A stretch of 64,000 nt of DNA from Mytilus trossulus (Eukaryota), in assembly GCF_036588685.1 (NCBI RefSeq), contig NC_086375.1, forward strand, positions 91,822,001 through 91,886,000, written 5' to 3'. The position numbers and the translations under genes are program-made. Positions 19,134 through 64,000 of the stretch are shown in pieces. Under the pieces are notes generated by a model, which saw nothing but the letters and a program-made list of their open reading frames with translations, did not search any database and was not told the origin of the DNA. Within the stretch, counting starts at the first letter, position 1. Each line of letters starts with the position of its first letter.

Positions 19134-20495
19134 TTCATTTTATTCGTGACACACACGTGTATAAGAAAACTGTTGACGTATTCGAGTATATACACATATA
19201 TACATTGACGTATATACCCTAGATTTCCCTTCAGTCATATTCACATATATAACATACACACCTTAAATAAAATTTTAAGTTTAAATCCTTTTTAAAGTAC
19301 AATATATATTTATATGTATGATTAAGACAAAATAAGATAGTTTACGTACCTTTTCAAACAAGGAATTAATACTACCCATTTAAAACCAGTCGGGAATAGA
19401 CTTTACACAATCATATATTATATCACCGTATAGTTAATACATATATTCTTATACACGAATTGTCCGAATTCTTATTCATTTGACGTTAGAATTCTGATTT
19501 TAAAGAAGTATGAATTTAGGCGAACATTCATTCCAGTCTGTGTTTACTTCTGTACAAAAATCTGTGCGGACAGAAGTTTAAATCCTAAGCGATTTCTTGC
19601 TTTTTTTAAATGTATTTAGTTTGTCAACCTTTCATTCAAAGTGAATGTGTGATGTAATTTGAAGCCGTGTACAGGGCTGGGAAATATGTCAATTAAGTAA
19701 GATTTAAGACGACATGTTAAAAAAAGATTTATAAAAAATGCGCCTAATATTTTATACTGCTTATGTTAAGCATGTTAAGAGCACCACATATAACTTGACT
19801 TAGAAGTAAACGGGTAACATCGAGTCCAGTACATAAAACAATGCTTCACGTCTCAGTTAAAAATGAAATGCGCTCTGCCAATACTTTGATTATCCTCCAA
19901 TGGTCGGTTGATCATTGATGTTGAAACTAACATGTTTATTTGTTGCAATTTGCAACAATTAAACATATACGGTATAGTTTTTTGTCATTGTTGAAGGTGG
20001 TAATCTTAAAGATAGTTTCTTTCGTCTAAATAATTTGTACGCTGTTAGATATTTTTCTCATTTGCAATCATATTGATCATATTGATCTAAATATTGATAT
20101 TATTGCAAATGATCAACTTGTATTTTTTATCCATCTGATGAGTTAAGCCTTTTGAAACTGATTTTTATATAGTTCGTTCTTATGCTGAGCTGTTATACCA
20201 CTGTCCCAGCCGGTAAGGGGAAGGGTTGGGATCCCACTAATAAGTTTAACTCCGCCACAATCTGTATGTATGTGCCTGTCCCAAGTCAGGAGCCTGTAAT
20301 TCAGTGGTTGTCGTTTGTTTATGTGTTACATATTAGTTTTTCGTTCATATTTTGAACATTAAATAAGGCCGTTAGTTTTCTCGTTTGAATTGTTTTACAT
20401 TGTCATTTGATGGCATTTTATAGCTGACTTTGCGGTATTGGCTTTGCTCATTGTTGAAGGCCGTACGGTGACCGAAAGTTGTTAATTTTTGTGTC

Positions 20496-20724
20496 TGTGC
20501 TGTCTCACAAGTAAACACAGCTAACCATGGTATATCTTTATTGTTAATTGTTGTACAATTGTCATATACTGAATGCGGTGAAAAGATTGTGCTTGGATTA
20601 ACAGATTATTACTTTTAGATGATAGAATTAAAACGTGATAGTTTCAAGGAAGTTATCGTAATTCAATGATAAAAAAATCAAATCGGAAAAAGCTTTACAA
20701 AATTCCGGAAATCGTTCCAGCATA
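20496..20724 (-). repeat. 3' LTR
   Basis: Direct repeat of 27035-27263. Confidence 0.97.
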
Positions 20725-20924
20725 CTCCTCGCCTGATATTGAAAATTTCACCTTAAACTCAACAATATCAAAAATAAAAACAAAAAAGAAACTTGCAACG
20801 TACATATTTACAAGTGTTTATAAGACATTGATTCATATTTAGAAGACTAAACATTTTTCATTAATAATGTCAAAATATATGCAAAAATACCAAAGTTCAA
20901 AGTTCACATGTACTTTAACACTGA

Positions 20925-23900
20925 TTATTGTTCTACAAGCAGAACCACTTCACTGATAGGACGCAAGAATGTTTTTGGGTTGCCATCTATAATCATTCTG
21001 AGTTCTACCTTTCGGACTAGTCCATCATCACTGGGCATGACTTTTGTAACAATACCCAAAGGCCAAGAATTTCGAGAGAGTTCCTTGTCACGAACGAGTA
21101 CAACGTCACCTAGTGAAACATTCTTTTCTACAGAAGTCCATTTCCTTCGATTTTGTAGTGTATTGAGGTATTCAACTTTCCAACGCTTCCAGAAGATTGC
21201 AGCGAGATTTTGAACCCTTTTCCACTGTTTACGGAGAAGATCCTTTTTGTCAACAGTTTCAAAATCTATGATGTTAGATTGCAATACATTAGATTTCTGA
21301 GAGAGTAATGTCAACGGTGAAAGAATAAATGGATTGTTAGGATCTGTTGATGTTTCGACAAGTGGTCTAGAGTTTATGATATAACTAGCCTCGGCTAAGA
21401 ATGTTGTGAGTACTTCATGAGTCAAACTACGAGATCCATATTCAAGCAGCATGGCATCCAAAATACGACGAGTCACACCAATCATCCTTTCCCACACTCC
21501 TCCCATGTGTGAAGAGTGTGGTGAATTGAAGATCCATGAAATTCCATGTTTTTGTAAGAAATTCTTAATCGGTCCATTTTCCACTTCTATGACATTTATA
21601 TTCATTTCATTCACGGTACCTACAAAATTTGTGCCTCTATCTGAACGAAATATTCTGACAGGACCACGTATTGCTTGAAATCTGAGTAACGCGTTAATGA
21701 ATGATGAAGCTGACATCTCCTCCACGACTTCGATGTGGACGGCTCGTGTTACAAGACATGTGAAGAGAGCAGCCCATCGTTTACTGTTTGCTGCACCGCC
21801 TCTGGTTTTCCTTGTTAACACCTCCCACGGACCAAACATATCAACGCCGACAGACGAAAAAGGTGGTTGTTCGGGCTCAATGCGATCAACAGGTAAGTTT
21901 GACATTTTTTGACATTGGAATTCTTTCCTGAGTTTTCTGCAAGTAACACACTTGTGCAGAATGGATGAAACAAGTCTTTTGCCACCTACTACCCAGTATC
22001 CTGCTGAACGAATTCGGCCTTCAGTAAAATGGCGTCCCTGATGTTTCACATCTTCATGGTATTTACGGACGATAAGAGTTGTAACATGATGTTTTGCAGG
22101 TAAGATGATAGGATTCTTGAAGGAAGAATCAAATTTAATATGTTTCAAGCGTCCACCTACACGTAGGAGCCCATCATTGCCGATAAATGGATCCAGTTGT
22201 ACTATAGAACTGTGTTTGTTTAGAGGCTTTGAGTCACGAATATCATTTAATTCACTTTCATAAAATTGCTGCTGTACCTCTCTTAGAACAAGCTGCTCTG
22301 TGTTGTGCAGCAATTCAACATTGTCCATGTTCTTTGAGCCATCTGATCGCTTCAAATTTAAATGACGCCGAATGAATTTTCGAACTGTAGCTAAGGCAAA
22401 ATTCAATCTATTCCAATCAGAGAATTTCTCAAATACACTGTTGCCAAGACCATTCGGTTTAACATTCTCAATATCAACTTTGTTCGAACGGATTTCCACA
22501 TCAACATCTGGCTGAATGAGTTAGAAGTCGGAATCTTTATCCAAAGATACATTAGGTGCTTCGATTCTGCTTGGCCCATGTAGTCAGAGACTATTCTGTA
22601 AGTCTGCGGGATGAATACCTCTAGTTCCTATATCGGCAGGGTTCTTTTCAGAACGAACATAGAGCCATTGAGTAGGTTCGCTATAACTTCTGATCCTTGC
22701 AACACGGTTGGCTACGTAAACAAAAAAGCGTCTCTTTTCATTGTTAATATAGCCTAAGACTACTCGACTATCACTGAAATATTTGATGTTATCAATATTG
22801 ATCTGCAAGTGGTCCACTGCAATCTGAGCAATTTCAACCCCTAGCACTGCAGAACAGAGTTCTAGTCTTGGAATGGTGGTACATTTCGCTGGAGCAACCT
22901 TGGCTTTACATAGCACGAATCCAGTAGAAGTAGAACCATCCGAATAACTAACATGAAGGTAACACACAGCTGCAATGGCAAGTTCTGACGCATCAAAGTA
23001 AATAAATAGTTCCTTGTTTACAGCATTGCTAAGATTTGGCACGATAATACGGGGTATGCGCAAATCCTCTAAGTCAGGTAAGTTTTGACTCCATTTATTC
23101 CATTCAGTCAACAAATGTTCAGGCAATGGATCATCCCAATCAAATGTTGAAGACACTATTTTTCGAAGTATGATTTTGCCTTGCACAGTTATTGGGGAGA
23201 TAAATCCCATTGGGTCGTAAAGACTATTAACAACTGAGAGTATGCCTCTACGCGTTGCTGATTTAGTTTCATTAGAGATGCTGAATTTAAAGGTATCGGA
23301 TCCTAAATCCCACAGCAGACCTAGGCTACGCTGAGTAGGTGAGTCTTTCTCAAAGTCCATATCCACGAGTCCCTTTGCTAAGTCTCCGGGTTCCAACGCA
23401 TTCATAACAACTTTGCTATTGGACGCAAATTTATGAAGTCGCAGATTTCCATGCATTTTCATGGCTTCTTGGGTTTTTAGAATCAAGTCTATAGCATCTT
23501 GGCTTGACGGGCAAGACTTCAAGCCATCATCAACATAGAAATCATTGTTTATAAAATTCTTCACATCGTCACCATGAGATTCAGTGGCTAATTCTCCTAT
23601 TCGACGTAATCCATACATAGCTATTGAGGGCGAAGGTCGATTCCCAAAGACATGTACACGCATACGGTAAGTAACAAGTGGGTTTTCAATCACATTATCT
23701 TTGTGCCATAGAAATCTGAGGAAATCTCTATGTTCTTCCTGTACCATGAACGAATGGAACATTTGCTGGATATCAGCGACTACTCCTACCATCTCTTTTC
23801 TAAATCGAATAAGTATTCCGAGAAGACTGTTGATGAGATCAGGACCTTGAAGCAGCTGGTCATTCAGTGAAACATTGTTGAATTTTGCAGATGCGTCAAA

Positions 23901-26900
23901 GACGCCGCGAATTTGCTCTGGCTTGCGAGGGTGATATACCCCGAATAATGGAAGGTACCAACGTTCTCTATCAGGAGGTAGATACGGGGCAATTTCAGCA
24001 TGGTGATTGTCAATAATTGTCTGCATGAATTCGAGTAGATGCTGCTTCTTTGTTTCATTCCTATGCAGTGAAGCATCTAGAGATTTGGCACGATTAAGCG
24101 CAAGCAGATAATTGTCTGGCATAGCATAATGTGGTGAACCAAAAGGTAAAGGCGCTACCCATTTACCATCAAAGTCTAGGCGAAATTCTTTGTCCATTAT
24201 GTCTAGAAATTTACGATCTTCAATTGACAGTCCGGGCTTATTGTCGTGACTAGTTGTTTCGAAAATGTTATATTTTGTCAATTGGGGTTGTTCACTTCTG
24301 ATGAATGTTTTTCGAACGTTAATAATTTGTTCACATGGTTTCAAACTCGTAGGGCGCCCATTATCTATGATGAAATTCTGATCACACTCCGCTGATGAAG
24401 GACAATGTTGTCCAAAGAGACAAACATCACCAATGATAGTCCAACCTAGTGGTGAACGTTGTGCAAAAGGTGACCGTGGAGGTCCTAACTTTTGTTCAAG
24501 AACGTGGTGAGCACTTGAAAGGTCACGGCCTATCAGTAACATTATTTTCATAGAAGCGTCGTGTTCATGTAATTGATGAGCAATGTCATGCAAGTGTGGG
24601 TAATGGCGAGCAACATCCGGTGTCGGAATTTCAGTTTGATTGTCTGGAATATTGTCACATTCTATAACAGGTGGTAATTTCATTTGCAGATTGTTACTGA
24701 CGCTTTCAACTACCAGTCCTCCTACAATCCGTCCACTACTTGTCGACCTTCCGGAACATGATTCCATCTTGTATTCGATTGTTTCAGATTCAACAGATAA
24801 GCTATCAAACAAACAAGTTTTTCCTAGAGTCCTATTGCTTTGGTCATCAAGCATTGCATATGCGAGTACAGCTTTGTCCGGTTGTCCTTCCGGAAATATT
24901 CGCACTGGAAGAATTTTTGCGCATGATTTGCCTGTAAAGCTGGGAATACCACAAATCTCGGTACAACGAGAGCTTACTTCTGCTGGTGTCTCCTCGCCAT
25001 GCTTTGGTGCAGCATTACCAGTTCTTTGATTCGAGTTATTGTTAATGTCTGCATTATTATTGTTAAAGTCTATATGAAGAGCAGTGCAATGAGTTGACGC
25101 TTTGCATATGTCACACTGTATCTGAGCCCGACAACGGTTTGCAAAATGGTCTGAAGTATCGCAACAACGTAAACAAATGTTATGACTTCGAAGCAGAGTT
25201 TTTCTGTTTTCTAAACTTTTGCACCGGAAAGCTTTACACTCATTAATGGTGTGTTTGGCTCCAATGTGAATCAAACAGGCATGTGTTGAGTTTGAGTTTG
25301 ACTTTGTTACAGGAGTAGAATTTACCTCCATCTTATTTGCCGTTATAAGATGCTGATCTTTTTGTTTGTACATAGTGTTTTGTGGTTTACTGTAACTTGG
25401 TTTTCTTGTTGAATGATTCATAGGTGTTTCAAAAAGGAGACTTGGGTCATTTCGAATAACACTTATTTCACCAATGAATTTTAAGAACTCGCTAAAAGGC
25501 GGGAAAATCACTTGGTTCTGCTTCTTATAATTCACCACTCGTGTGATCCATTTATCTTGAATAAACTTTGGCAGTTTTTGAACTATTGGTCTAATGCCTA
25601 GTGAGGAGTCTAAGTATGAAAATATCACACTATATTCTCGGAGTGTTTTCACAGCCTGAATTTCATTTAGCAAATCGTGTAGGTCATAAAGAACTTTACG
25701 GTCAATCATATTTGGCAAATTTGAAAGTTTTGTTTTCAAAGCAGATTCTAATAACTCTGCTGAACCGAAACGTTGGTCTAGTCTATTCCAAATATTGGTT
25801 AAACACAAGTCTGGACTGTCGGCACATGAAGCCCTGGTGCTCATGATCAGACGATAAGCATCGGAATCCTTTTTTACACAATTTGTCAACAGAGTGATTT
25901 CTTCTAATGCAGAACATTGAATGTCAGCAGCCATAACTTTGAATTGTTTTTTCCACACGATGTAACGGTCTGGCTTGTCGTCAAATCTTTGTTGTTGAAA
26001 GCTTTCTAACAATAAGTTTTTCTTAATAAGAAACGTTGATGTAAATTGTGTTTCTGCAGTAGCGCTATTGTGTGAAGCTGAGATTAAAGTGGTTGGCCCT
26101 TGGACTGGCATTGTTGGTTTTGCAGTAGTTGTTTGTTTAGGAATAGTGTGAACAATGTTCTGTACTATTGGTGTAGAAGCAGTAATATCTTTTTGAAAAT
26201 AGTCTGGCGTGACTGCAGGTACAAACAATTTTGCTTCAGCTGATAGAGGTTTGTCGTGTGGAGAAGTAGAGCCCAATCCATCTAGATAGTTTAAAGTTCT
26301 TTCGAACGCACCAATTTCCTCTTTAGGTAAGATATCAGACCCATCATGGTCAGATCCGCCTTGAGAATGTCTCTCTAGATAAGTTGCTTCTACATCAGCC
26401 GCTGCTGCATTTTTTTGTTGTGCAAGAATTTCTAGCTGTAAGGATTTTTCAAATTGTTCTTTTTTCAATGCCACTTCTTTTTCAACATATTTGAGCTTTA
26501 TTTTTTCAGATTCTGCTTTGGCTCTTAGCCCAACTGTACGACTCCCAGATGCTGACGAACGAGTTCTGTCTGATCTTTGTGACGTGTGCGATTTAACTGA
26601 TTTTGTTTCAACGGATTCCTTTGCAAACTGAATTTTGTCCATTAACATACTGTATTTGTTTTTAACATCAGTCATTATCACCCAGTATGATTCCAATTCG
26701 TTTTGGGCTTCTGAATCTCTTGAACGTGACAGAAAATCAATGTACTCATTTGCATTTTTGTCATATCTTTTGTACACAGTGTCTAAATCTGTTTCTGCAT
26801 TTTGTAATGCTGACAAAGACTTTGGTAGTGTATTAAGATTGTTCATACAATTTGATAACATGAAACTTGACACTTTTGCCCTTTTTATGTGAGTGTCCTT

Positions 26901-26993
26901 TTGTTCCTGGTGGAACAGAGTTCCCTTTTCAGTCATCTGACTAGTTCGTTGATCTGTGTCTCCTTCACGACTGTCTGTAAACATGGCGGACAT
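20925..26993 (-). pseudogene. BEL/Pao gag-pol polyprotein (about 2022 codons, one frame, two in-frame stops)
   Basis: Three Gag zinc knuckles, protease AMLDDQS, RT RGVFDAS/GPDL/DIQQMF/FYVDD, RNase H DAS/TIPRLEL/NPAD, integrase HHCC plus DMFGP/SDRGTNF/GGVWERM. Stops TGA 22584-22586 and TAA 22521-22523 separate the two track ORFs, which share a frame. Confidence 0.93.
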
Positions 26994-27034
26994 GTACCAG
27001 TGTGTTGTAAGGATCCTTCAAGTAATCTTTTCAC

Positions 27035-27263
27035 TGTGCTGTCTCACAAGTAAACACAGCTAACCATGGTATATCTTTATTGTTAATTGTTGTACAATTG
27101 TCATATACTGAATGCGGTGAAAAGATTGTGCTTGGATTAACAGATTATTACTTTTAGATGATAGAATTAAAACGTGATAGTTTCAAGGAAGTTATCGTAA
27201 TTCAATGATAAAAAAATCAAATCGGAAAAAGCTTTACAAAATTCCGGAAATCGTTCCAGCATA
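27035..27263 (-). repeat. 5' LTR
   Basis: Direct repeat of 20496-20724. On the minus strand it has AATAAA at 27081-27076 and a TATA-like TCTAAAAG at 27158-27151. Confidence 0.97.
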
Positions 27264-27819
27264 GTGTCATTTTGGTCTCTTGTGGAGATTTGCGTCATTG
27301 GCAATCATCATGCCCACATCTTCTTTTTTTGTTTGAGTGCCGATGAGACAACTCTCCATCCAAGTCAGACTTGTAAAAAAAAACCACTACAGGTCAAAGT
27401 ACGGTCTTCGACACAGAGCAACTGCAACTGCAAGCCACAAAGTGCCCCAAAAATGACAAGTGTAAAACCATTCAAACGATCAAACCTGGTAACCGTCTAT
27501 TATATGTAAAATACGAGAAACAGAAAAAAAACCCTTATGAACCACCTCAACAAACGAAAACCATCAAACACCATTCGGGGTCCTGATCCATAACACGTAC
27601 AAATATACGCAGCTGGTTCACACATTTCAACAGGTACCAACCTTCGCTCTTACATGAAACATCCGAACGCGGAGATAGAAAGAAAAGTCTACCTTTTGAA
27701 AAAACAGTTTAGCATGTGTCTCATTCTGAACGAATCGAGTTATATGTAAAATGCAGCGTTGTTTTAGATCAAAGGTTGCTGTGAAACACAACTTCTAACA
27801 TTCACACAACAAATACTTG

Positions 27820-28540
27820 ATTATATGGCAAAGTTGTCATGGACTTTCTAAAAGCGTTTGACAAAGAGACCCATAAAAGACTTATCCTAAAACTGAAACG
27901 CAAAACATCATATTGGATAGAGATATGGTTATCACATTGATCTCAAAAAGTGGTAGTTGACAGTCGCACATAATTTGGCTGTCCCATACTGTCAGACGTT
28001 CCTCAAGGCTCTGTTCTCGGCCCATGTCTGTTCTAAATTTACATAAATGACATGCCAGACAACCTCAAAAGTAATGTTCGCCTCTTTGCAGATGACACTA
28101 TAGTGTATTTCACAATAACATCACTAACTGACTGCCATATCCTTCTATCAGACTTAGATAAATTGGAACAATGGGAGCAAGAATGGCTTACGTCCTTTAA
28201 CCAGACAAATGTGAATTCTTTTAAATCATCAACATAACAAAAAAAAAAAAACATAATCAAATCATTTTTAAATACACACTACATGATCATATTCTAAAAT
28301 CAACAGATATCCACTAATGCTCTGACATGGAATTCTCTTATAAATCACATCACAAATAAAGCAAATGCATCACTGAGATTTATCATAAAAAGAAATGTCA
28401 AAACCACAAAAGAAATCGCTTACAAAACATATGTCAGACCAAAAATAGAATACTGTAGTGTTGTCGGAGACCCCCGGCAGAATTAACAACAAATACATAA
28501 AATGTATTTGAAATGATTCAGAGAAGAGCTGGCAGGTACT
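27820..28540 (+). pseudogene. Decayed CR1/L2-group LINE reverse transcriptase fragment (5' part; resumes at about 31534-31840)
   Basis: Motifs DFSKAFDK, VPQGSVLGP, LFADD, YKTYVRP and IQRRAGRY. LINE-like sequence continues after the Penelope-like insertion. Confidence 0.75.
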
Positions 28541-31533
28541 GTCGCATTTCAAAATGTGAGACCAAAGGCTGCAAAACTTGTGCTATTTTAATTACAGATG
28601 CTGAATTGACTAGCAATTTGACCAAGAAGTCATATTTTACCAGAAGTTACGATGATCTGAATTGTAAATCGATAAATGTCGTCTACAAATTAGAGTGCAA
28701 CCTTTGCGGATTGGTATACGTCGGTGAAACGAAAGGAAGGCTGAACAAACGTATGTGCGGTCATAGATCAGACATTAACCTCAATGCTAACGACATTCTA
28801 TACCAGCATTTCAATCAGCCCGATCATTCCATCGTTTCTATGACAGTTCGCATTATCGAAAAGATATACCATAGCTCTAACAATCCTAATCTTTCATCGA
28901 CTCTTCGTAGACAAAAAGAAGACTACTGGATTAGACAATTGGGAACTGCAACACCTTAAGGCTGCAATGACAAAATTGATGGTATATGTATTCTATCTAG
29001 TCCTTCGTGTAACTCGGTGAATGTGATGAATATTTTCAACTCGACTCCTTCACGTAGACGCAGTCATGGTCATCGTCATTATATATCACCTTCTCTGCAT
29101 GATGTCTCTATTAATGACTTGCTGTCATGCATACAAAAGCCGTTAGGTTTTCATCACATTCGCACGAAACTTTATTCGTTACCCCTTTCAAAACTTCATT
29201 CTCTGTTCAATTTATGTTTGGAATCCACTGTTACAAACCCTCATTCAAACCAATACAAACTTCAAGCTATAATTTCGGATATTGCAAGTCACAGACTTTT
29301 CAAGCCAGTTCGCATTGGAAAAGATGAAAAAGAGAAAAGATCTTTTCTAAATCTTTCCTCTGCCAACAGAGGTCTCGATGGCGTCAACCTAGGCAATATC
29401 CTTCATCATAAATTAGTTCAATCGAAAATACCTCCTTATTTCAAAGACCAGTCTGTACCAATAACTTCTTATACCTATACCAAACCTATTGCAACTAAAA
29501 TTTTCAATTACAAACGCGTTTTGCAGGATCTCGATATTGACGACTTCAAGTCTAAACCTCCTGATTGCACTTGTGCTAGTTCCCAATTCACATATAATCC
29601 TGCTGGCCACGTTATTACCGGTGACCTTAACATTGTTAATAACACTTTTCTACGAAATGTGTTATCGAAAGGTCCTAAATCCATCAATTGGAAATACAAC
29701 TTTAAAATTTTGATGGATTCGGTCGAGGATTATGCCAGGCAATGGGCTAAGCGCGAGAGGGAAGACGTAGCCTGACGCTCTATCCGAATGGATTAAGGCA
29801 GTGAGGTCGTTGATACAAATCAAAATATAAAACTGAATGGGTCCATCAATGCCCATGCTACGTCAATCTTTAAAGACCCAAATGTTGCTAAACACCTATC
29901 CGACCTCCATGATAAATATGTTGTTGTCCCCGCAGACAAAGCCCCAAATAGCATCGTTTTTGTGTGTAAAAGTCATTACATTAACAATTCACTTGGAAAC
30001 TCAACATATACCCTCACAACACTTACCAAAGAGGAAATCCTGGATAATCATAGGTCTGTTCGTTTTCGTTCCTTTGGAATTTCAACCAAAGATGAAGAAC
30101 TGGATCTTCCATCATTGTATTGGATACCTAAACTACACAACGGTATATTGCTTGGTCTTCCAAGTGCTCCACGAAACCTCTTTCTAGATTATTTACATCT
30201 ATTTTATCAGCAATCAAAGACAGGCTTCAAAGTTATTGTGAAACTGCCTATTCTAGAGGTGGCGTGAATCATATGTGGATACTTTAAAATTCCAAAGATC
30301 TTTTAGAGTACATACAATCTAACTCTCTTTCATCTTGTAACAGTATTAAAACATTTGACTTTTCTACTCTTTACACAAGTATTCCACATTCCAAACTAAA
30401 AGACAAATTGAAAGAGTTGGTATTACTTTGCTTCATAAAAAAGAATGGCCAACGTAGATACAAGTATCTTGTCTTAGGGAGGGATAAATCCTACTTTGTA
30501 AAGAATCACTCTAGATCTGATTCAAACAAAAAATTCTCTGAAACTGATTTTATCAAGATACTTGATTTCTTGATTGACAACATATTTGTTACGTTCGGAG
30601 GACGTGTTTTTCAACAGACTGTCGGCATTCCAATGGGAACAAATTGTGCCCCTCTACTCGCCGACTTGTTTCTTTATTATTATTAGGCTGACTTCATGCA
30701 GGAACTTCTTAGAAAGAAAGATACGAAGTTAGCAATATTCTTTAACTCTACTTTCCGCTATATAGATGATGTTCTTTCACTAAACAATTCAAAATTTGGT
30801 GACTATGTGGAACGCATCTATCCCATCGAACTGGAGATAAAGGATACTACAGATACAATTAAGTCGGCTTCATATCTTGACTTACATCTAGAAATTGACA
30901 ATGAGGGTCGGTTGAAAACAAAACTTTACGACAAAAGAGATGATTTCAGCTTTCCAATTGTGAACTTTCCATTTCTAAGTAGCAACATTCCAGCAGCACC
31001 TGCATACTGGGTATATATCTCCCAATTTATACGATATTCCCGTGCTTGCATTTCCTATCATGATTTTCTTGATAGAGGGTTACTGCTCACAAGGAAGCTA
31101 TTAAACCAAGAGTTCCAATTGGTGAAGTTGAAATCATCCCTTCGTAAATTTTACGGATGCCATCACGAGTTGGTTGACCGTTATGGAATAACCGTTTCAC
31201 AAATGATATCGGATATGTTCCTTACGTCGTAACTACAATCCCCTTCCCTTTCATGAATGTGACCTACCGAATTATACTATTTACCGGATTTGAAATCACA
31301 TAAGCAACACGACGGTGCCACATGTGGAGCAGGATCTGCTTACCCTTCCGGAGCACCTGAGATCACCCCTAGTTTTTGGTGGGGTTTGTGTTGTTTATTC
31401 TTTAGTTTTCTATGTTGTGTCATTTGTACTATTGTTTTTCTGTTTTTCTTTTTCATTTGTAGCCATGGCGTTGTCAGTTTATTTTAGATTTATGAGTTTG
31501 AATGTCCCTTTGGTATCTTTCGTCCCTCTTTTA
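28541..31533 (+). mobile_element. Penelope-like element with N-terminal GIY-YIG endonuclease (Naiad/Chlamys architecture); 5'-truncated and disrupted
   Basis: CKTC...NVVYKLECNLCGLVYVGETKGRLNKRMCGHRSDI...HF (GIY-YIG) lies upstream of RT motifs ADKA, YWIPKLH, FDFSTLYT, QTVGIPMGTNCAPLLADLFL and FRYIDD. Several stops and frameshifts. Confidence 0.85.
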
Positions 31534-32229: not shown

Positions 32230-58061
<25,832 letters not shown>

Positions 58062-61000
58062 GTAAGTTACTTGTTTAACAAAAGTGTGTTTGATACTTGT
58101 CCAGAACTGAGGGAGCCATTGTTAGATCATGTCAATACATTTACAGCACATCAGGTAAATTACTTGTTTAACAAAAGTGTGTTTGATACTTGTCCAGAAC
58201 TGAGGGAGCCATTGTTAGATCATGTCAATACATTTACAGCACATCAGGTAAATTACTTGTTTAACAAAAGTGTGTTTGATACTTGTCCAGAACTGAGGGA
58301 GCCATTGTTAGATCATGTCAATACATTTACAGCACATCAGGTAAATTACTTGTTTAACAAAAGTGTGTTTGATACTTGTCCAGAACTGAGGGAGCCATTG
58401 TTAGATCATGTCAATACATTTACAGCACATCAGGTAAATTACTTGTTTAACAAAAGTGTGTTTGATACTTGTCCAGAACTGAGGGAGCCATTGTTAGATC
58501 ATGTCAAGTCAATACATTTACAGCACATCAGGTAAATTACTTGTTTAACAAAAGTGTGTTTGATACTTGTCCAGAACTGAGGGAGCCATTGTTAGATCAT
58601 GTCAATACATTTACAGCACATCAGGTAAATTACTTGTTTAACAAAAGTGTGTTTGATACTTGTCCAGAACTGAGGGAGCCATTGTAAGATCATGTCAATA
58701 CATTTACAGCACATCAGGTAAATTACTTGTTTAACAAAAGTGTGTTTGATACTTGTCCAGAACTGAGGGAGCCATTGTTAGATCATGTCAATACATTTAC
58801 AGCACATCAGGTAAATTACTTGTTTAACAAAAGTGTGTTTGATACTTGTCCAGAACTGAGGGAGCCATTGTTAGAACATGTCAATACATTTACAGCACAT
58901 CAGGTAAGTTACTTGTTTAACAAAAGTGTGTTTGATACTTGTCCAGAACTGAGGGAGCCATTGTTAGATCATGTCAATACATTTACAGCACATCAGGTAA
59001 ATTACTTGTTTAACAAAAGTGTGTTTGATACTTGTCCAGAACTGAGGGAGCCATTGTTAGATCATGTCAATACATTTACAGCTCACCAGGTAAATTACTT
59101 GTTTAACAAAAGTGTGTTTGATACTTGTCCAGAACTGAGGGAGCCATTGTTAGATCATGTCAATACATTTACAGCTCACCAGATAAATAACTAGCTTAAC
59201 AAAAGTGTGTTTGATACTTGTCCAGAACTGAGGGAGCCATTGTTAGATCATGTCAATACATTTACAGCACATCAGGTAAATTACTTGTTTAACAAAAGTG
59301 TGTTTGATACTTGTCCAGAACTGAGGGAGCCATTGTTAGATCATGTCAATACATTTACAGCTCATCAGGTAAATTACTTGTTTAACAAAAGTGTGTTTGA
59401 TACTTGTCCAGAACTGAGGGAGCCATTGTTAGATCATGTCAATACATTTACAGCTCACCAGATAAATAACTAGCTTAACAAAAGTGTGTTTGATACTTGT
59501 CCAGAACTGAGGGAGCCATTGTTAGATCATGTCAATACATTTACAGCTCATCAGGTAAATTACTTGTTTAACAAAAGTGTGTTTGATACTTGTCCAGAAC
59601 TGAGGGAGCCATTGTTAGATCATGTCAATACATTTACAGCACATCAGGTAAATTACTTGTTTAACAAAAGTGTGTTTGATACTTGTCCAGAACTGAGGGA
59701 GCCATTGTTAGATCATGTCAATACATTTACAGCACATCAGGTAAATTACTTGTTTAACAAAAGTGTGTTTGATACTTGTCCAGAACTGAGGGAGCCATTG
59801 TTAGATCATGTCAATACATTTACAGCTCATCAGGTAAATTACTTGTTTAACAAAAGTGTGTTTGATACTTGTCCAGAACTGAGGGAGCCATTGTTAGATC
59901 ATGTCAATACATTTACAGCTCACCAGATAAATAACTAGCTTAACAAAAGTGTGTTTGATACTTGTCCAGAACTGAGGGAGCCATTGTTAGATCATGTCAA
60001 TACATTTACAGCTCACCAGATAAATAACTAGCTTAACAAAAGTGTGTTTGATACTTGTCCAGAACTGAGGGAGCCATTGTTAGATCATGTCAATACATTT
60101 ACAGCTCATCAGGTAAATTACTTGTTTAACAAAAGTGTGTTTGATACTTGTCCAGAACTGAGGGAGCCATTGTTAGATCATGTCAATACATTTACAGCAC
60201 ATCAGGTAAATTACTTGTTTAACAAAAGTGTGTTTGATACTTGTCCAGAACTGAGGGAGCCATTGTTAGATCATGTCAATACATTTACAGCTCATCAGGT
60301 AAATTACTTGTTTAACAAAAGTGTGTTTGATACTTGTCCAGAACTGAGGGAGCCATTGTTAGATCATGTCAATACATTTACAGCACATCAGGTAAATTAC
60401 TTGTTTAACAAAAGTGTGTTTGATACTTGTCCAGAACTGAGGGAGCCATTGTTAGATCATGTCAATACATTTACAGCACATCAGGTAAGTTACTTGTTTA
60501 ACAAAAGTGTGTTTGATACTTGTCCAGAACTGAGGGAGCCATTGTTAGATCATGTCAATACATTTACAGCACATCAGGTAAATTACTTGTTTAACAAAAG
60601 TGTGTTTGATACTTGTCCAGAACTGAGGGAGCCATTGTTAGATCATGTCAATACATTTACAGCACATCAGGTAAATTACTTGTTTAACAAAAGTGTGTTT
60701 GATACTTGTCCAGAACTGAGGGAGCCATTGTTAGATCATGTCAATACATTTACAGCACATCAGGTAAATTACTAGCTTAACAAAAGTGTGTTTGATACTT
60801 GTCCAGAACTGAGGGAGCCATTGTTAGATCATGTCAATACATTTACAGCACATCAGGTAAATTACTTGTTTAACAAAAGTGTGTTTGATACTTGTCCAGA
60901 ACTGAGGGAGCCATTGTTAGATCATGTCAATACATTTACAGCACATCAGGTAAGTTACTTGTTTAACAAAAGTGTGTTTGATACTTGTCCAGAACTGAGG

Positions 61001-64000
61001 GAGCCATTGTTAGATCATGTCAATACATTTACAGCACATCAGGTAAGTTACTTGTTTAACAAAAGTGTGTTTGATACTTGTCCAGAACTGAGGGAGCCAT
61101 TGTTAGATCATGTCAATACATTTACAGCACATCAGGTAAGTTACTAGCTTAACAAAAGTGTGTTTGATACTTGTCCAGAACTGTGGGAGCCATTGTTAGA
61201 TCATGTCAATACATTTACAGCACATCACGTAAGTTACTTGTTTAACAAAAGTGTGTTTGATACTTGTCCAGAACTGAGGGAGCCATTGTTAGATCATGTC
61301 AATACATTTACAGCACACCAGGTAAATTACTTGTTTAACAAAAGTGTGTTTGATACTTGTCCAGAACTGAGGGAGCCATTGTTAGATCATGTCAATACAT
61401 TTACAGCACATCAGGTAAGTTACTTGTTTAACAAAAGTGTGTTTGATACTTGTCCAGAACTGAGGGAGCCATTGTTAGATCATGTCAATACATTTACAGC
61501 ACATCAGGTAAATTACTTGTTTAACAAAAGTGTGATTGATACTTGTCCAGAACTGAGGGAGCCATTGTTAGATCATGTCAATACATTTACAGCACATCAG
61601 GTAAATTACTTGTTTAACAAAAGTGTGTTTGATACTTGTCCAGAACTGAGGGAGCCATTGTTAGATCATGTCAATACATTTACAGCACATCAGGTAAATT
61701 ACTTGTTTAACAAAAGTGTGTTTGATACTTGTCCAGAACTGAGGGAGCCATTGTTAGATCATGTCAATACATTTACAGCACATCAGGTAAATTACTTGTT
61801 TAACAAAAGTGTGTTTGATACTTGTCCAGAACTGAGGGAGCCATTGTTAGATCATGTCAATACATTTACAGCACATCAGGTAAATTACTAGCTTAACAAA
61901 AGTGTGTTTGATACTTGTCCAGAACTGAGGGAGCCATTGTTAGATCATGTCAATACATTTACAGCACATCAGGTAAATTACTTGTTTAACAAAAGTGTGT
62001 TTGATACTTGTCCAGAACTGAGGGAGCCATTGTTAGATCATGTCAATACATTTACAGCACATCAGGTAAGTTACTTGTTTAACAAAAGTGTGTTTGATAC
62101 TTGTCCAGAACTGAGGGAGCCATTGTTAGATCATGTCAATACATTTACAGCACATCAGGTAAGTTACTTGTTTAACAAAAGTGTGTTTGATACTTGTCCA
62201 GAACTGAGGGAGCCATTGTTAGATCATGTCAATACATTTACAGCACATCAGGTAAGTTACTAGATTAACAAAAGTGTGTTTGATACTTGTCCAGAACTGA
62301 GGGAGCCATTGTTAGATCATGTCAATACATTTACAGCACACCAGGTAAATTACTTGTTTAACAAAAGTGTGTTTGATACTTGTCCAGAACTGAGGGAGCC
62401 ATTGTAGATCATGTCAATACATTTACAGCACATCAGGTAAGTTACTTGTTTAACAAAAGTGTGTTTGATACTTGTCCAGAACTGAGGGAGCCATTGTTAG
62501 ATCATGTCAATACATTTACAGCACACCAGGTAAATTACTTGTTTAACAAAAGTGTGTTTGATACTTGTCCAGAACTGAGGGAGCCATTGTTAGATCATGT
62601 CAATACATTTACAGCACATCAGGTAAGTTACTTGTTTAACAAAAGTGTGTTTGATACTTGTCCAGAACTGAGGGAGCCATTGTTAGATCATGTCAATACA
62701 TTTACAGCACATCAGGTAAGTTACTTGTTTAACAAAAGTGTGTTTGATACTTGTCCAGAACTGAGGGAGCCATTGTTAGATCATGTCAATACATTTACAG
62801 CACATCAGGTAAATTACTTGTTTAACAAAAGTGTGTTTGATACTTGTCCAGAACTGAGGGAGCCATTGTTAGATCATGTCAATACATTTACAGCACATCA
62901 GGTAAATTACTAGCTTAACAAAAGTGTGTTTGATACTTGTCCAGAACTGAGGGAGCCATTGTTAGATCATGTCAATACATTTACAGCACATCAGGTAAGT
63001 TACTTGTTTAACAAAAGTGTGTTTGATACTTGTCCAGAACTGAGGGAGCCATTGTTAGATCATGTCAATACATTTACAGCACATCAGGTAAATTACTTGT
63101 TTAACAAAAGTGTGTTTGATACTTGTCCAGAACTGAGGGAGCCATTGTTAGATCATGTCAATACATTTACAGCACATCAGGTAAATTACTAGCTTAACAA
63201 AAGTGTGTTTGATACTTGTCCAGAACTGAGGGAGCCATTGTTAGATCATGTCAATACATTTACAGCACATCAGGTAAATTACTAGCTTAACAAAAGTGTG
63301 TTTGATACTTGTCCAGAACTGAGGGAGCCATTGTTAGATCATGTCAATACATTTACAGCACATCAGGTAAATTACTTGTTTAACAAAAGTGTGTTTGATA
63401 CTTGTCCAGAACTGAGGGAGCCATTGTTAGATCATGTCAATACATTTACAGCACATCAGGTAAATTACTTGTTTAACAAAAGTGTGTTTGATACTTGTCC
63501 AGAACTGAGGGAGCCATTGTTAGATCATGTCAATACATTTACAGCACATCAGGTAAGTTACTTGTTTAACAAAAGTGTGTTTGATACTTGTCCAGAACTG
63601 AGGGAGCCATTGTTAGATCATGTCAATACATTTACAGCACACCAGGTAAATTACTTGTTTAACAAAAGTGTGTTTGATACTTGTCCAGAACTGAGGGAGC
63701 CATTGTTAGATCATGTCAATACATTTACAGCACATCAGGTAAGTTACTTGTTTAACAAAAGTGTGTTTGATACTTGTCCAGAACTGAGGGAGCCATTGTT
63801 AGATCATGTCAATACATTTACAGCACATCAGGTAAGTTACTTGTTTAACAAAAGTGTGTTTGATACTTGTCCAGAACTGAGGGAGCCATTGTTAGATCAT
63901 GTCAATACATTTACAGCACATCAGGTAAATTACTTGTTTAACAAAAGTGTGTTTGATACTTGTCCAGAACTGAGGGAGCCATTGTTAGATCATGTCAATA

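Follow-up and report, generated by a model that had tools for sequence, protein, structure and literature searches.

The stretch of Mytilus trossulus DNA analysed here (the window, 64,000 nt) carries on its minus strand a young BEL/Pao retrotransposon copy with a 5-bp target-site duplication (TSD) and identical 229-bp long terminal repeats (LTRs), which agree at 229 of 229 positions, start with TATG and end with GCACA (Table 1). The element is assigned to BEL/Pao because its proteins match PF05380 (E 8.6e-47), Integrase_H2C2, rve (E 9e-08) and DUF5641 (E 1.9e-26). Reverse transcriptase (RT) precedes integrase, and the RVT_1 match is weak (E 0.0012, below the cut-off). Its LTRs, TSD and polypurine tract (PPT) are likewise those of BEL/Pao elements (Belpaoviridae). 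No chromodomain was matched by Pfam and the matched Pfam families are BEL/Pao-specific, which places the element outside the Ty3/gypsy chromoviruses. The first part of the reading frame has its first ATG at 26993 and terminates at a stop codon (22586-22584); a second in-frame stop (22523-22521) lies before the other part, so that the polyprotein of this copy is interrupted. Elsewhere in the window, a tandem array of a 93-bp unit (57844-64000, about 63 copies, mostly 95-100% alike) contains long open frames with only scattered repeat-driven Pfam matches, one of them on Symplekin_C. Additionally, five open frames of 132-271 aa with stops between them (28501-31232, plus strand) gave no Pfam match and are possibly a decayed mobile element.

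Table 1. Features of the BEL/Pao copy in the window
Feature	Position	Strand	Remarks
BEL/Pao element	27263-20496	-	Mytilus trossulus window
TSD, 5' side	27264..27268	-	GACAC
5' LTR	27035..27263	-	229 bp, intron-less form, TA...CA ends
TATA-like TCTAAAAG	27151..27158	-	candidate promoter element
CA dinucleotide	27129..27130	-	13 nt upstream of primer 3' end; candidate initiator or primer boundary
Exon-1 part of predicted primer (AAT)	27125..27127	-	donor GTAAGT follows in sister copies
Point of exact intron loss	27124..27125	-	from comparison with sister copies; 530-nt GT..AG skip in contig run X15
Exon-2 part of predicted primer (CTTTTCAC)	27117..27124	-	preceded by pyrimidine tract and TAG in sister copies
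AATAAA	27076..27081	-	predicted polyadenylation signal, in exon 2
Non-tRNA primer-binding site (GTGAAAAGATT)	27024..27034	-	abuts the LTR
gag-pol ORF, part 1	22584..27017	-	Peptidase_A17/PF05380 and weak RVT_1 match
pol ORF, part 2	20925..22520	-	Integrase_H2C2, rve, DUF5641
Polypurine tract	20725..20735	-	adjoins the 3' LTR
3' LTR	20496..20724	-	intron-less, same sequence as 5' LTR
TSD, 3' side	20491..20495	-	GACAC

The primer-binding site (PBS) follows the 5' LTR with no spacer, and its complement AATCTTTTCAC lies once in each LTR (27127-27117 and 20588-20578). When the window LTR was shuffled 20,000 times with its dinucleotides preserved, 27 of the shuffles had an 11-nt match to the start of the PBS, offsets 0-5 being allowed (P 0.00135). 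The original prediction had placed the GCACA end of the 5' LTR, the PBS, the 11-mer, the TATA-like TCTAAAAG (27158) and the AATAAA (27081), all of which were found again. The PBS also lacks TGG, as had been claimed, so that no tRNA CCA end can pair with it, including that of Arg tRNA. The intron position within the 11-mer had been missed, the window LTR being an intron-less form.

A search of the genome (G000, 1.3 Gb) found other copies that match positions 1-139 and 140-229 of the LTR separately. These sister copies are 98-99% identical to the window element, and their LTRs measure 687-764 bp versus 229 bp. The extra DNA begins with GTAAGT and ends with a pyrimidine tract and TAG, as a GT-AG intron, and it splits the 11-mer into AAT and CTTTTCAC. 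The intron (458-535 bp) is kept in all seven LTRs read from the sisters L134, L149, L150 and L151. Both window LTRs lack it by exact removal, and judged by this comparison the window copy is a spliced derivative. Exact loss also affects both LTRs of L178 and L198 and the 5' LTR of L168, whose 3' LTR was not seen; in L191 the 5' LTR lacks the intron exactly and the 3' LTR retains 604 nt of it. The GT donor, pyrimidine tract, YAG acceptor and exact removal (5 copies) are those of a U2 spliceosomal intron, with a branch motif in only 7 of 21 families. L191 (G000:C1:54944521-54954520) also pairs with its PBS over 13 nt versus 11 in three siblings, and ordinary reverse transcription does not explain its half-loss pattern. 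Several copies of the window's family at G000:C5:10.535-10.559 Mb are tandem or nested, with internal duplications.

For the wider survey, 160 BEL/Pao loci were fetched, comprising 100 of 150 PF05380 matches (long frames favoured) and 60 loci from an RT search. With the window included, 97 of 161 loci had an LTR pair with a TSD, and the 64 loci without such a pair were excluded from the counts. The 97 usable elements include 40 with a TGG PBS (median LTR 172 bp) and 56 without TGG, while one with mis-called ends (L125) belongs to neither class. A scan of 56 LTRs for contiguous complements gave only 3-8 nt, which is not significant; the signal emerged once an intron was allowed. When GT donors were combined with AG acceptors within each LTR, a split complement of at least 10 nt (10-22 nt) was found at an intron in 48 of the 56 non-TGG elements, with splice sites that rank at or close to the top. 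Of the other eight, the window copy, L139 (a single-copy family) and L198 have an LTR that lacks the intron and in which the 11-mer is uninterrupted. The complement contains one mismatch in four copies defined by a TSD (L164, L169, L187, L201), and that of L132 is only 9 nt long. None of the 40 TGG elements has a split complement, their longest being 4 nt; this control is lenient, since most of these LTRs are short and contain few splice sites.

The two halves of the pairing vary together. Among representatives of 21 families, the junction of each LTR matches its own PBS over a mean of 11.2 nt, with at least 10 nt in 20 of 21. Swapped pairs average 2.9 nt and attain 10 nt in 8 of 420 cases, all between families with near-identical PBSs. 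The observed own-pair sum was attained in 0 of 100,000 permutations, the 21 families being related to one another and thus not 21 independent events. The close families L086 and L075 are one compensatory pair apart, at PBS position 11. Under splice-site scoring rules blind to the PBS, the donor chosen by complementarity had no better-scoring GT in its LTR in 20 of 21 families, and no acceptor scored better than the chosen one in 18 of 21. The introns are 121-625 nt long, and the duplex begins at the first post-LTR base in 19 of 21 families. Thus, the covariation of PBS and intra-LTR complement that the original prediction had proposed to look for is present across related families. Its tRNA-independent self-priming geometry is upheld as well, since the complement tracks the PBS over 21 families and is absent from 40 TGG elements.

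In a quick tree, whose root serves for drawing only and which omits L058 and contains no named BEL/Pao references, 12 TGG rows fall on one side of a branch (support 86), and the 21 split families cluster with 9 outside loci (support 98). L062 forms a long branch of unsure placement. The named BEL/Pao clades, as given in the available part of PMC6238403, are Suzu, Sinbad, Sparrow, Surcouf, Tas, Flow and Dan. Of 10 metagenome loci, three were readable and seven lacked the needed LTR and PBS; in L230 only a GTGAAAAG PBS is visible. L231 has a 3+8 nt split complement around a 418-nt intron, and L238 has one of 10+4 nt around a 262-nt intron. In L237 an uninterrupted 11-mer occupies the acceptor position, and a donor upstream of it carries the same exon-1 end. 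Here the exon-1 end replaces the acceptor AG at the 3' end of the intron, and the LTR still holds the intron body; this is a single contig, and an assembly effect is possible.

Several further peculiarities were met in the survey. LTRs that start with TA, not TG, occur in the window copy, its sisters and the L086/L075 families, and LTRs that end in TA, not CA, in L086/L075 and several TGG families, in all cases in young copies with perfect TSDs. In TGG families such as L058, L105, L111, L129, L141 and L143, the PBS differs between close copies past about 10-13 nt by small insertions and swaps, which suggests a short or truncated tRNA primer. When L052 and L054 are compared with L057 and L078, an extra C follows PBS position 10 in two of the four copies; such a base might arise if the end of a primer copy gained a cap-templated or untemplated nucleotide.

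Splice joints were sought in runs of assembled contigs whose RNA nature is guessed and which cannot show transcript starts. For the window's family, one of four runs (X15) contains a joint across a 530-nt GT..AG intron into exon 2, the PBS and gag, which could alternatively derive from an intron-less genomic copy. The joint of exon 1 to exon 2 is absent from X1, X3 and X12, where the intron is covered, and in X3 and X15 an acceptor or donor is joined to other sequence. In the L075 family, all four runs contain the exon-1 end, attached to the acceptor as a loose end, and the intron is kept, where read, in all 9 sampled copies. Contig depth in the runs of this family climbs toward the donor, which was not used as evidence for a start. 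Contigs of X15, X7, X14 and X3 link the donors and acceptors of LTRs to sequence unrelated to them, and these LTRs may give host transcripts first exons or splice sites.

Of 17 main-clade families, 15 have a YA dinucleotide 13 nt upstream of the primer 3' end (background 0.15), which suggests that it is a boundary. A transcript start at the YA would make exon 1 only 5-8 nt long, and one at 27127, as originally predicted, would leave a first exon of only 3-5 nt. No TATA box at constant spacing was seen by eye in the exon-1 tails of the 21 families.

Three aberrant copies resemble fossils left by the extension of a spliced primer into cDNA. All 161 loci were scanned for a primer that continues into the LTR end in reverse complement, and two have one, L108 and L170. 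The 3' LTR of L108 consists of exon 1, the spliced primer and the complement of a 3-nt PBS spacer plus about 45 nt of the LTR end, and continues near the start of exon 2. That of L170 consists of exon 1, the spliced primer and the complement of the entire exon 2 and the acceptor AG, and continues within the intron. Both are most simply read as products of snap-back copying of an RNA primer attached to minus-strand DNA, and L170 would show a spliced primer whose extension got to an unspliced 3' LTR. An inversion at the DNA level was considered and does not fit readily, as both are 3' LTRs behind the PPT and the PBS-spacer letters in L108 are found in no LTR. In L095, the complement of exon 1 has taken the place of eight leader bases, so that 22 nt are paired versus 13 in four siblings. 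Such an overwritten leader is what copying of the PBS from the primer would be expected to leave. Moreover, 17 nt of exon 1 are represented in L095 by their complement, and at least one primer would therefore have exceeded 11 nt.

The split complement, its covariation with the PBS, the splice sites, the exact intron losses and the junction in likely-RNA contigs point with good confidence to a BEL/Pao lineage that carries an intron-split self-primer in its LTR, joined by splicing of the 5' leader and put to use by fold-back and RNase H release. In this mechanism, the LTR intron splits a 10-13-nt complement of the post-LTR site, and splicing of the 5' leader would unite the halves. The spliced leader likely folds back onto the PBS, and the element's RNase H, as in Tf1, would free the primer by cleaving at the duplex's 3' edge. 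By analogy with Tf1, extension would start from the last base of the LTR. The cut would lie 5-8 nt within exon 2, and strong-stop DNA would end inside exon 2. A cut at this place means that the upstream part of the new LTR, intron included, would be copied from the 3' LTR of the RNA. This 3' LTR would usually stay unspliced, so that the intron could be inherited though the primer needs its removal. It may escape splicing because it is preceded by a 7-kb exon and because splicing 340 nt past the stop codon would expose the RNA to nonsense-mediated decay. Intron-less copies like that in the window may come from rare RNAs in which both LTRs were spliced. It is also reasonably probable, at a lower level of confidence, that this widespread lineage makes its reverse-transcription primer by means of the host spliceosome. 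Priming would then require the intron to be removed from the 5' LTR and its inheritance would require the 3' LTR to keep it, so that asymmetric splicing of the two identical LTRs would be obligatory for retrotransposition and possibly regulated. The intron-less copies, L139 and L237 imply that at least one round of copying can do without the intron.

The strongest competitor, itself unlikely, is self-priming without splicing, in which a core of 5-8 nt in exon 2 and G-U pairs with the intron tail would suffice and the intron would serve expression only. It draws on the pairing energies of the window's family (unspliced -11.4 versus spliced -12.0 kcal/mol, the unspliced form using G-U pairs and a bulge) and on the unspliced leader of L134, which folds its 8-nt core at a probability of 0.98-1.0. 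The gain from splicing is below 1 kcal/mol or negative in 4 of 21 families, the window's among them, and the unspliced form pairs better in 2 of 21. Against this, the spliced form is favoured by over 1 kcal/mol (median 4.6) in 17 of 21 families, in a comparison that allowed unspliced pairing a longer stretch, G-U pairs and bulges. Furthermore, the PBS beyond the core matches exon 1 and not the intron, since pairing extends on average 4.0 nt into the own exon-1 tail and 0.4 nt into the intron tail, the latter no further than into the exon-1 tails of other families (0.4 nt). The spliced junction is also present in the fossils L108, L170 and L095. Priming by the 3' end of the lariat was dropped on the same intron-tail average.

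Slightly less probable is a primer supplied in trans, either by a short spliced LTR transcript (from a solo LTR or a second RNA copy) or by a back-spliced circle. Priming in cis and in trans is indistinguishable from sequence, the joints of LTR donors to other sequence in likely-RNA contigs imply that separate spliced LTR RNAs probably exist, and L191 combines a spliced 5' LTR with an unspliced 3' LTR. A fold-back is favoured by intramolecular primer:PBS pairing, predicted at 0.82-0.99 in 6 of 6 natural intron-less leaders, by the covariation of the PBS with its own LTR between L086 and L075, and by the precedent of Tf1, which folds back according to the available part of PMC7175516. Whole-leader folding z-scores are weak (-2.0 to +0.5).

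Improbable to a marginally greater degree is priming by a tRNA fragment, such as tRNA-Glu cut in the anticodon loop, with the LTR-PBS duplex being regulatory or U5-IR-like. A 7-nt match to host tRNA-Glu(TTC), with its end at nt 38, is present in the window PBS; L175 has a match as well (7 nt), as has, weakly, L139. Half-tRNA priming is known in copia lineages from the accessible text of PMC6317226. The host tRNAs compared directly form an incomplete set (Lys and Met from an Rfam search, with Glu and Gly added), the best match being the longest exact match to same-named tRNA records strung together. Within these limited tests, the check for a matching host tRNA proposed in the original prediction gave at most 7 nt for the window PBS, and an 18-nt site for the 3' end of a host tRNA is absent from the window element among the four tRNA types. 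Across 22 non-TGG families the best matches reach 4-8 nt versus 18 nt for the positive control, the TGG family L050 against host tRNA-Met. Genome-wide patterns of PBS complement plus T-arm motif gave 7 and 15 matches versus 10 and 18 for controls, and none of the 7 was a tRNA. Moreover, the PBS changes in step with the LTR among families, which a fixed tRNA would forbid. In the test for a U5-IR-like stem, hairpins lie within the loop in 6 of 6 folds, but these have no structure in common and their z-scores are weak. At G000:C10:51.25-51.30 Mb (Lys/Met) and C5:45.7-46.0 Mb (Glu/Gly), tRNA genes form long tandem arrays. Finally, a chance match in an AT-rich LTR, to which the non-significant 8-nt core matches of single elements (P 0.03-0.9) could be ascribed, is refuted by the shuffle test, the 48 of 56 versus 0 of 40 elements and the own-versus-swapped covariation.

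If true, the splice-built primer would join tRNA primers and contiguous self-primers as a third means of initiating reverse transcription. It would tie transposition to host splicing and explain the persistence of the intron in the LTR. It would also explain the failure of PBS annotation on these elements, as DNA-level screens cannot see a split primer. No description of self-priming or of an LTR intron in BEL/Pao was found in a literature search of titles and the beginnings of abstracts, with subscription papers and Repbase notes outside its scope, which agrees with the remark in the original prediction that self-priming is not known to have been described for this superfamily. The accessible text of PMC554778 (Sinbad) makes no mention of PBS or tRNA, and that of PMC3118150 none of PBS, primer, tRNA, intron or "splic"; portions of PMC3601003, PMC13524379 and PMC8220671 were also covered. 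The finding amounts to a probably new form of self-priming within a superfamily otherwise reported to be primed by tRNA, with a primer that splicing likely puts together.

The window element resembles the Belpaoviridae of the ICTV profile in domain content and order, 5-bp TSD, PPT and size. According to the sections available (PMC8742986), the profile describes the BEL/Pao PBS as 18 nt for tRNA-Arg or tRNA-Gly and replication as tRNA-primed, and calls this replication poorly understood; unlike these elements, the window lineage has no 18-nt tRNA PBS. Self-primers with an LTR complement of at least 10 nt are predicted for plant Tcn1 (gypsy) and TAR/Houba/Osr-1 (copia) in the available part of PMC6317226, which makes them similar to the window lineage, although none of them is BEL/Pao. 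The screen behind these predictions, as described there, seeks a contiguous DNA complement and would miss a split primer. A further likeness is to Tf1/sushi elements such as Tf1 and Tf2 of Schizosaccharomyces pombe, which share the self-complement of about 11 nt, the PBS abutting the 5' LTR and the lack of a tRNA site. In Tf1, bases 1 to 11 anneal to the PBS, and RNase H cleaves between bases 11 and 12 (PMC7175516, in part), and the primer becomes copied into the cDNA's 3' end (from the text available of PMC11042837). The lineage studied here shows the Tf1-type complement of about 11 nt to an LTR-abutting PBS and the covariation of primer and PBS, with L231 and L238 included. The Tf1-like reading of the original prediction thus stands in its geometry and gives way as plain Tf1 priming, the primer being normally split by an intron and the window copy a spliced derivative. 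Unlike the Tf1/sushi elements, which are Ty3/gypsy, the window lineage belongs to another superfamily (PF05380, DUF5641) and has its primer split by a spliceosomal intron of the LTR.
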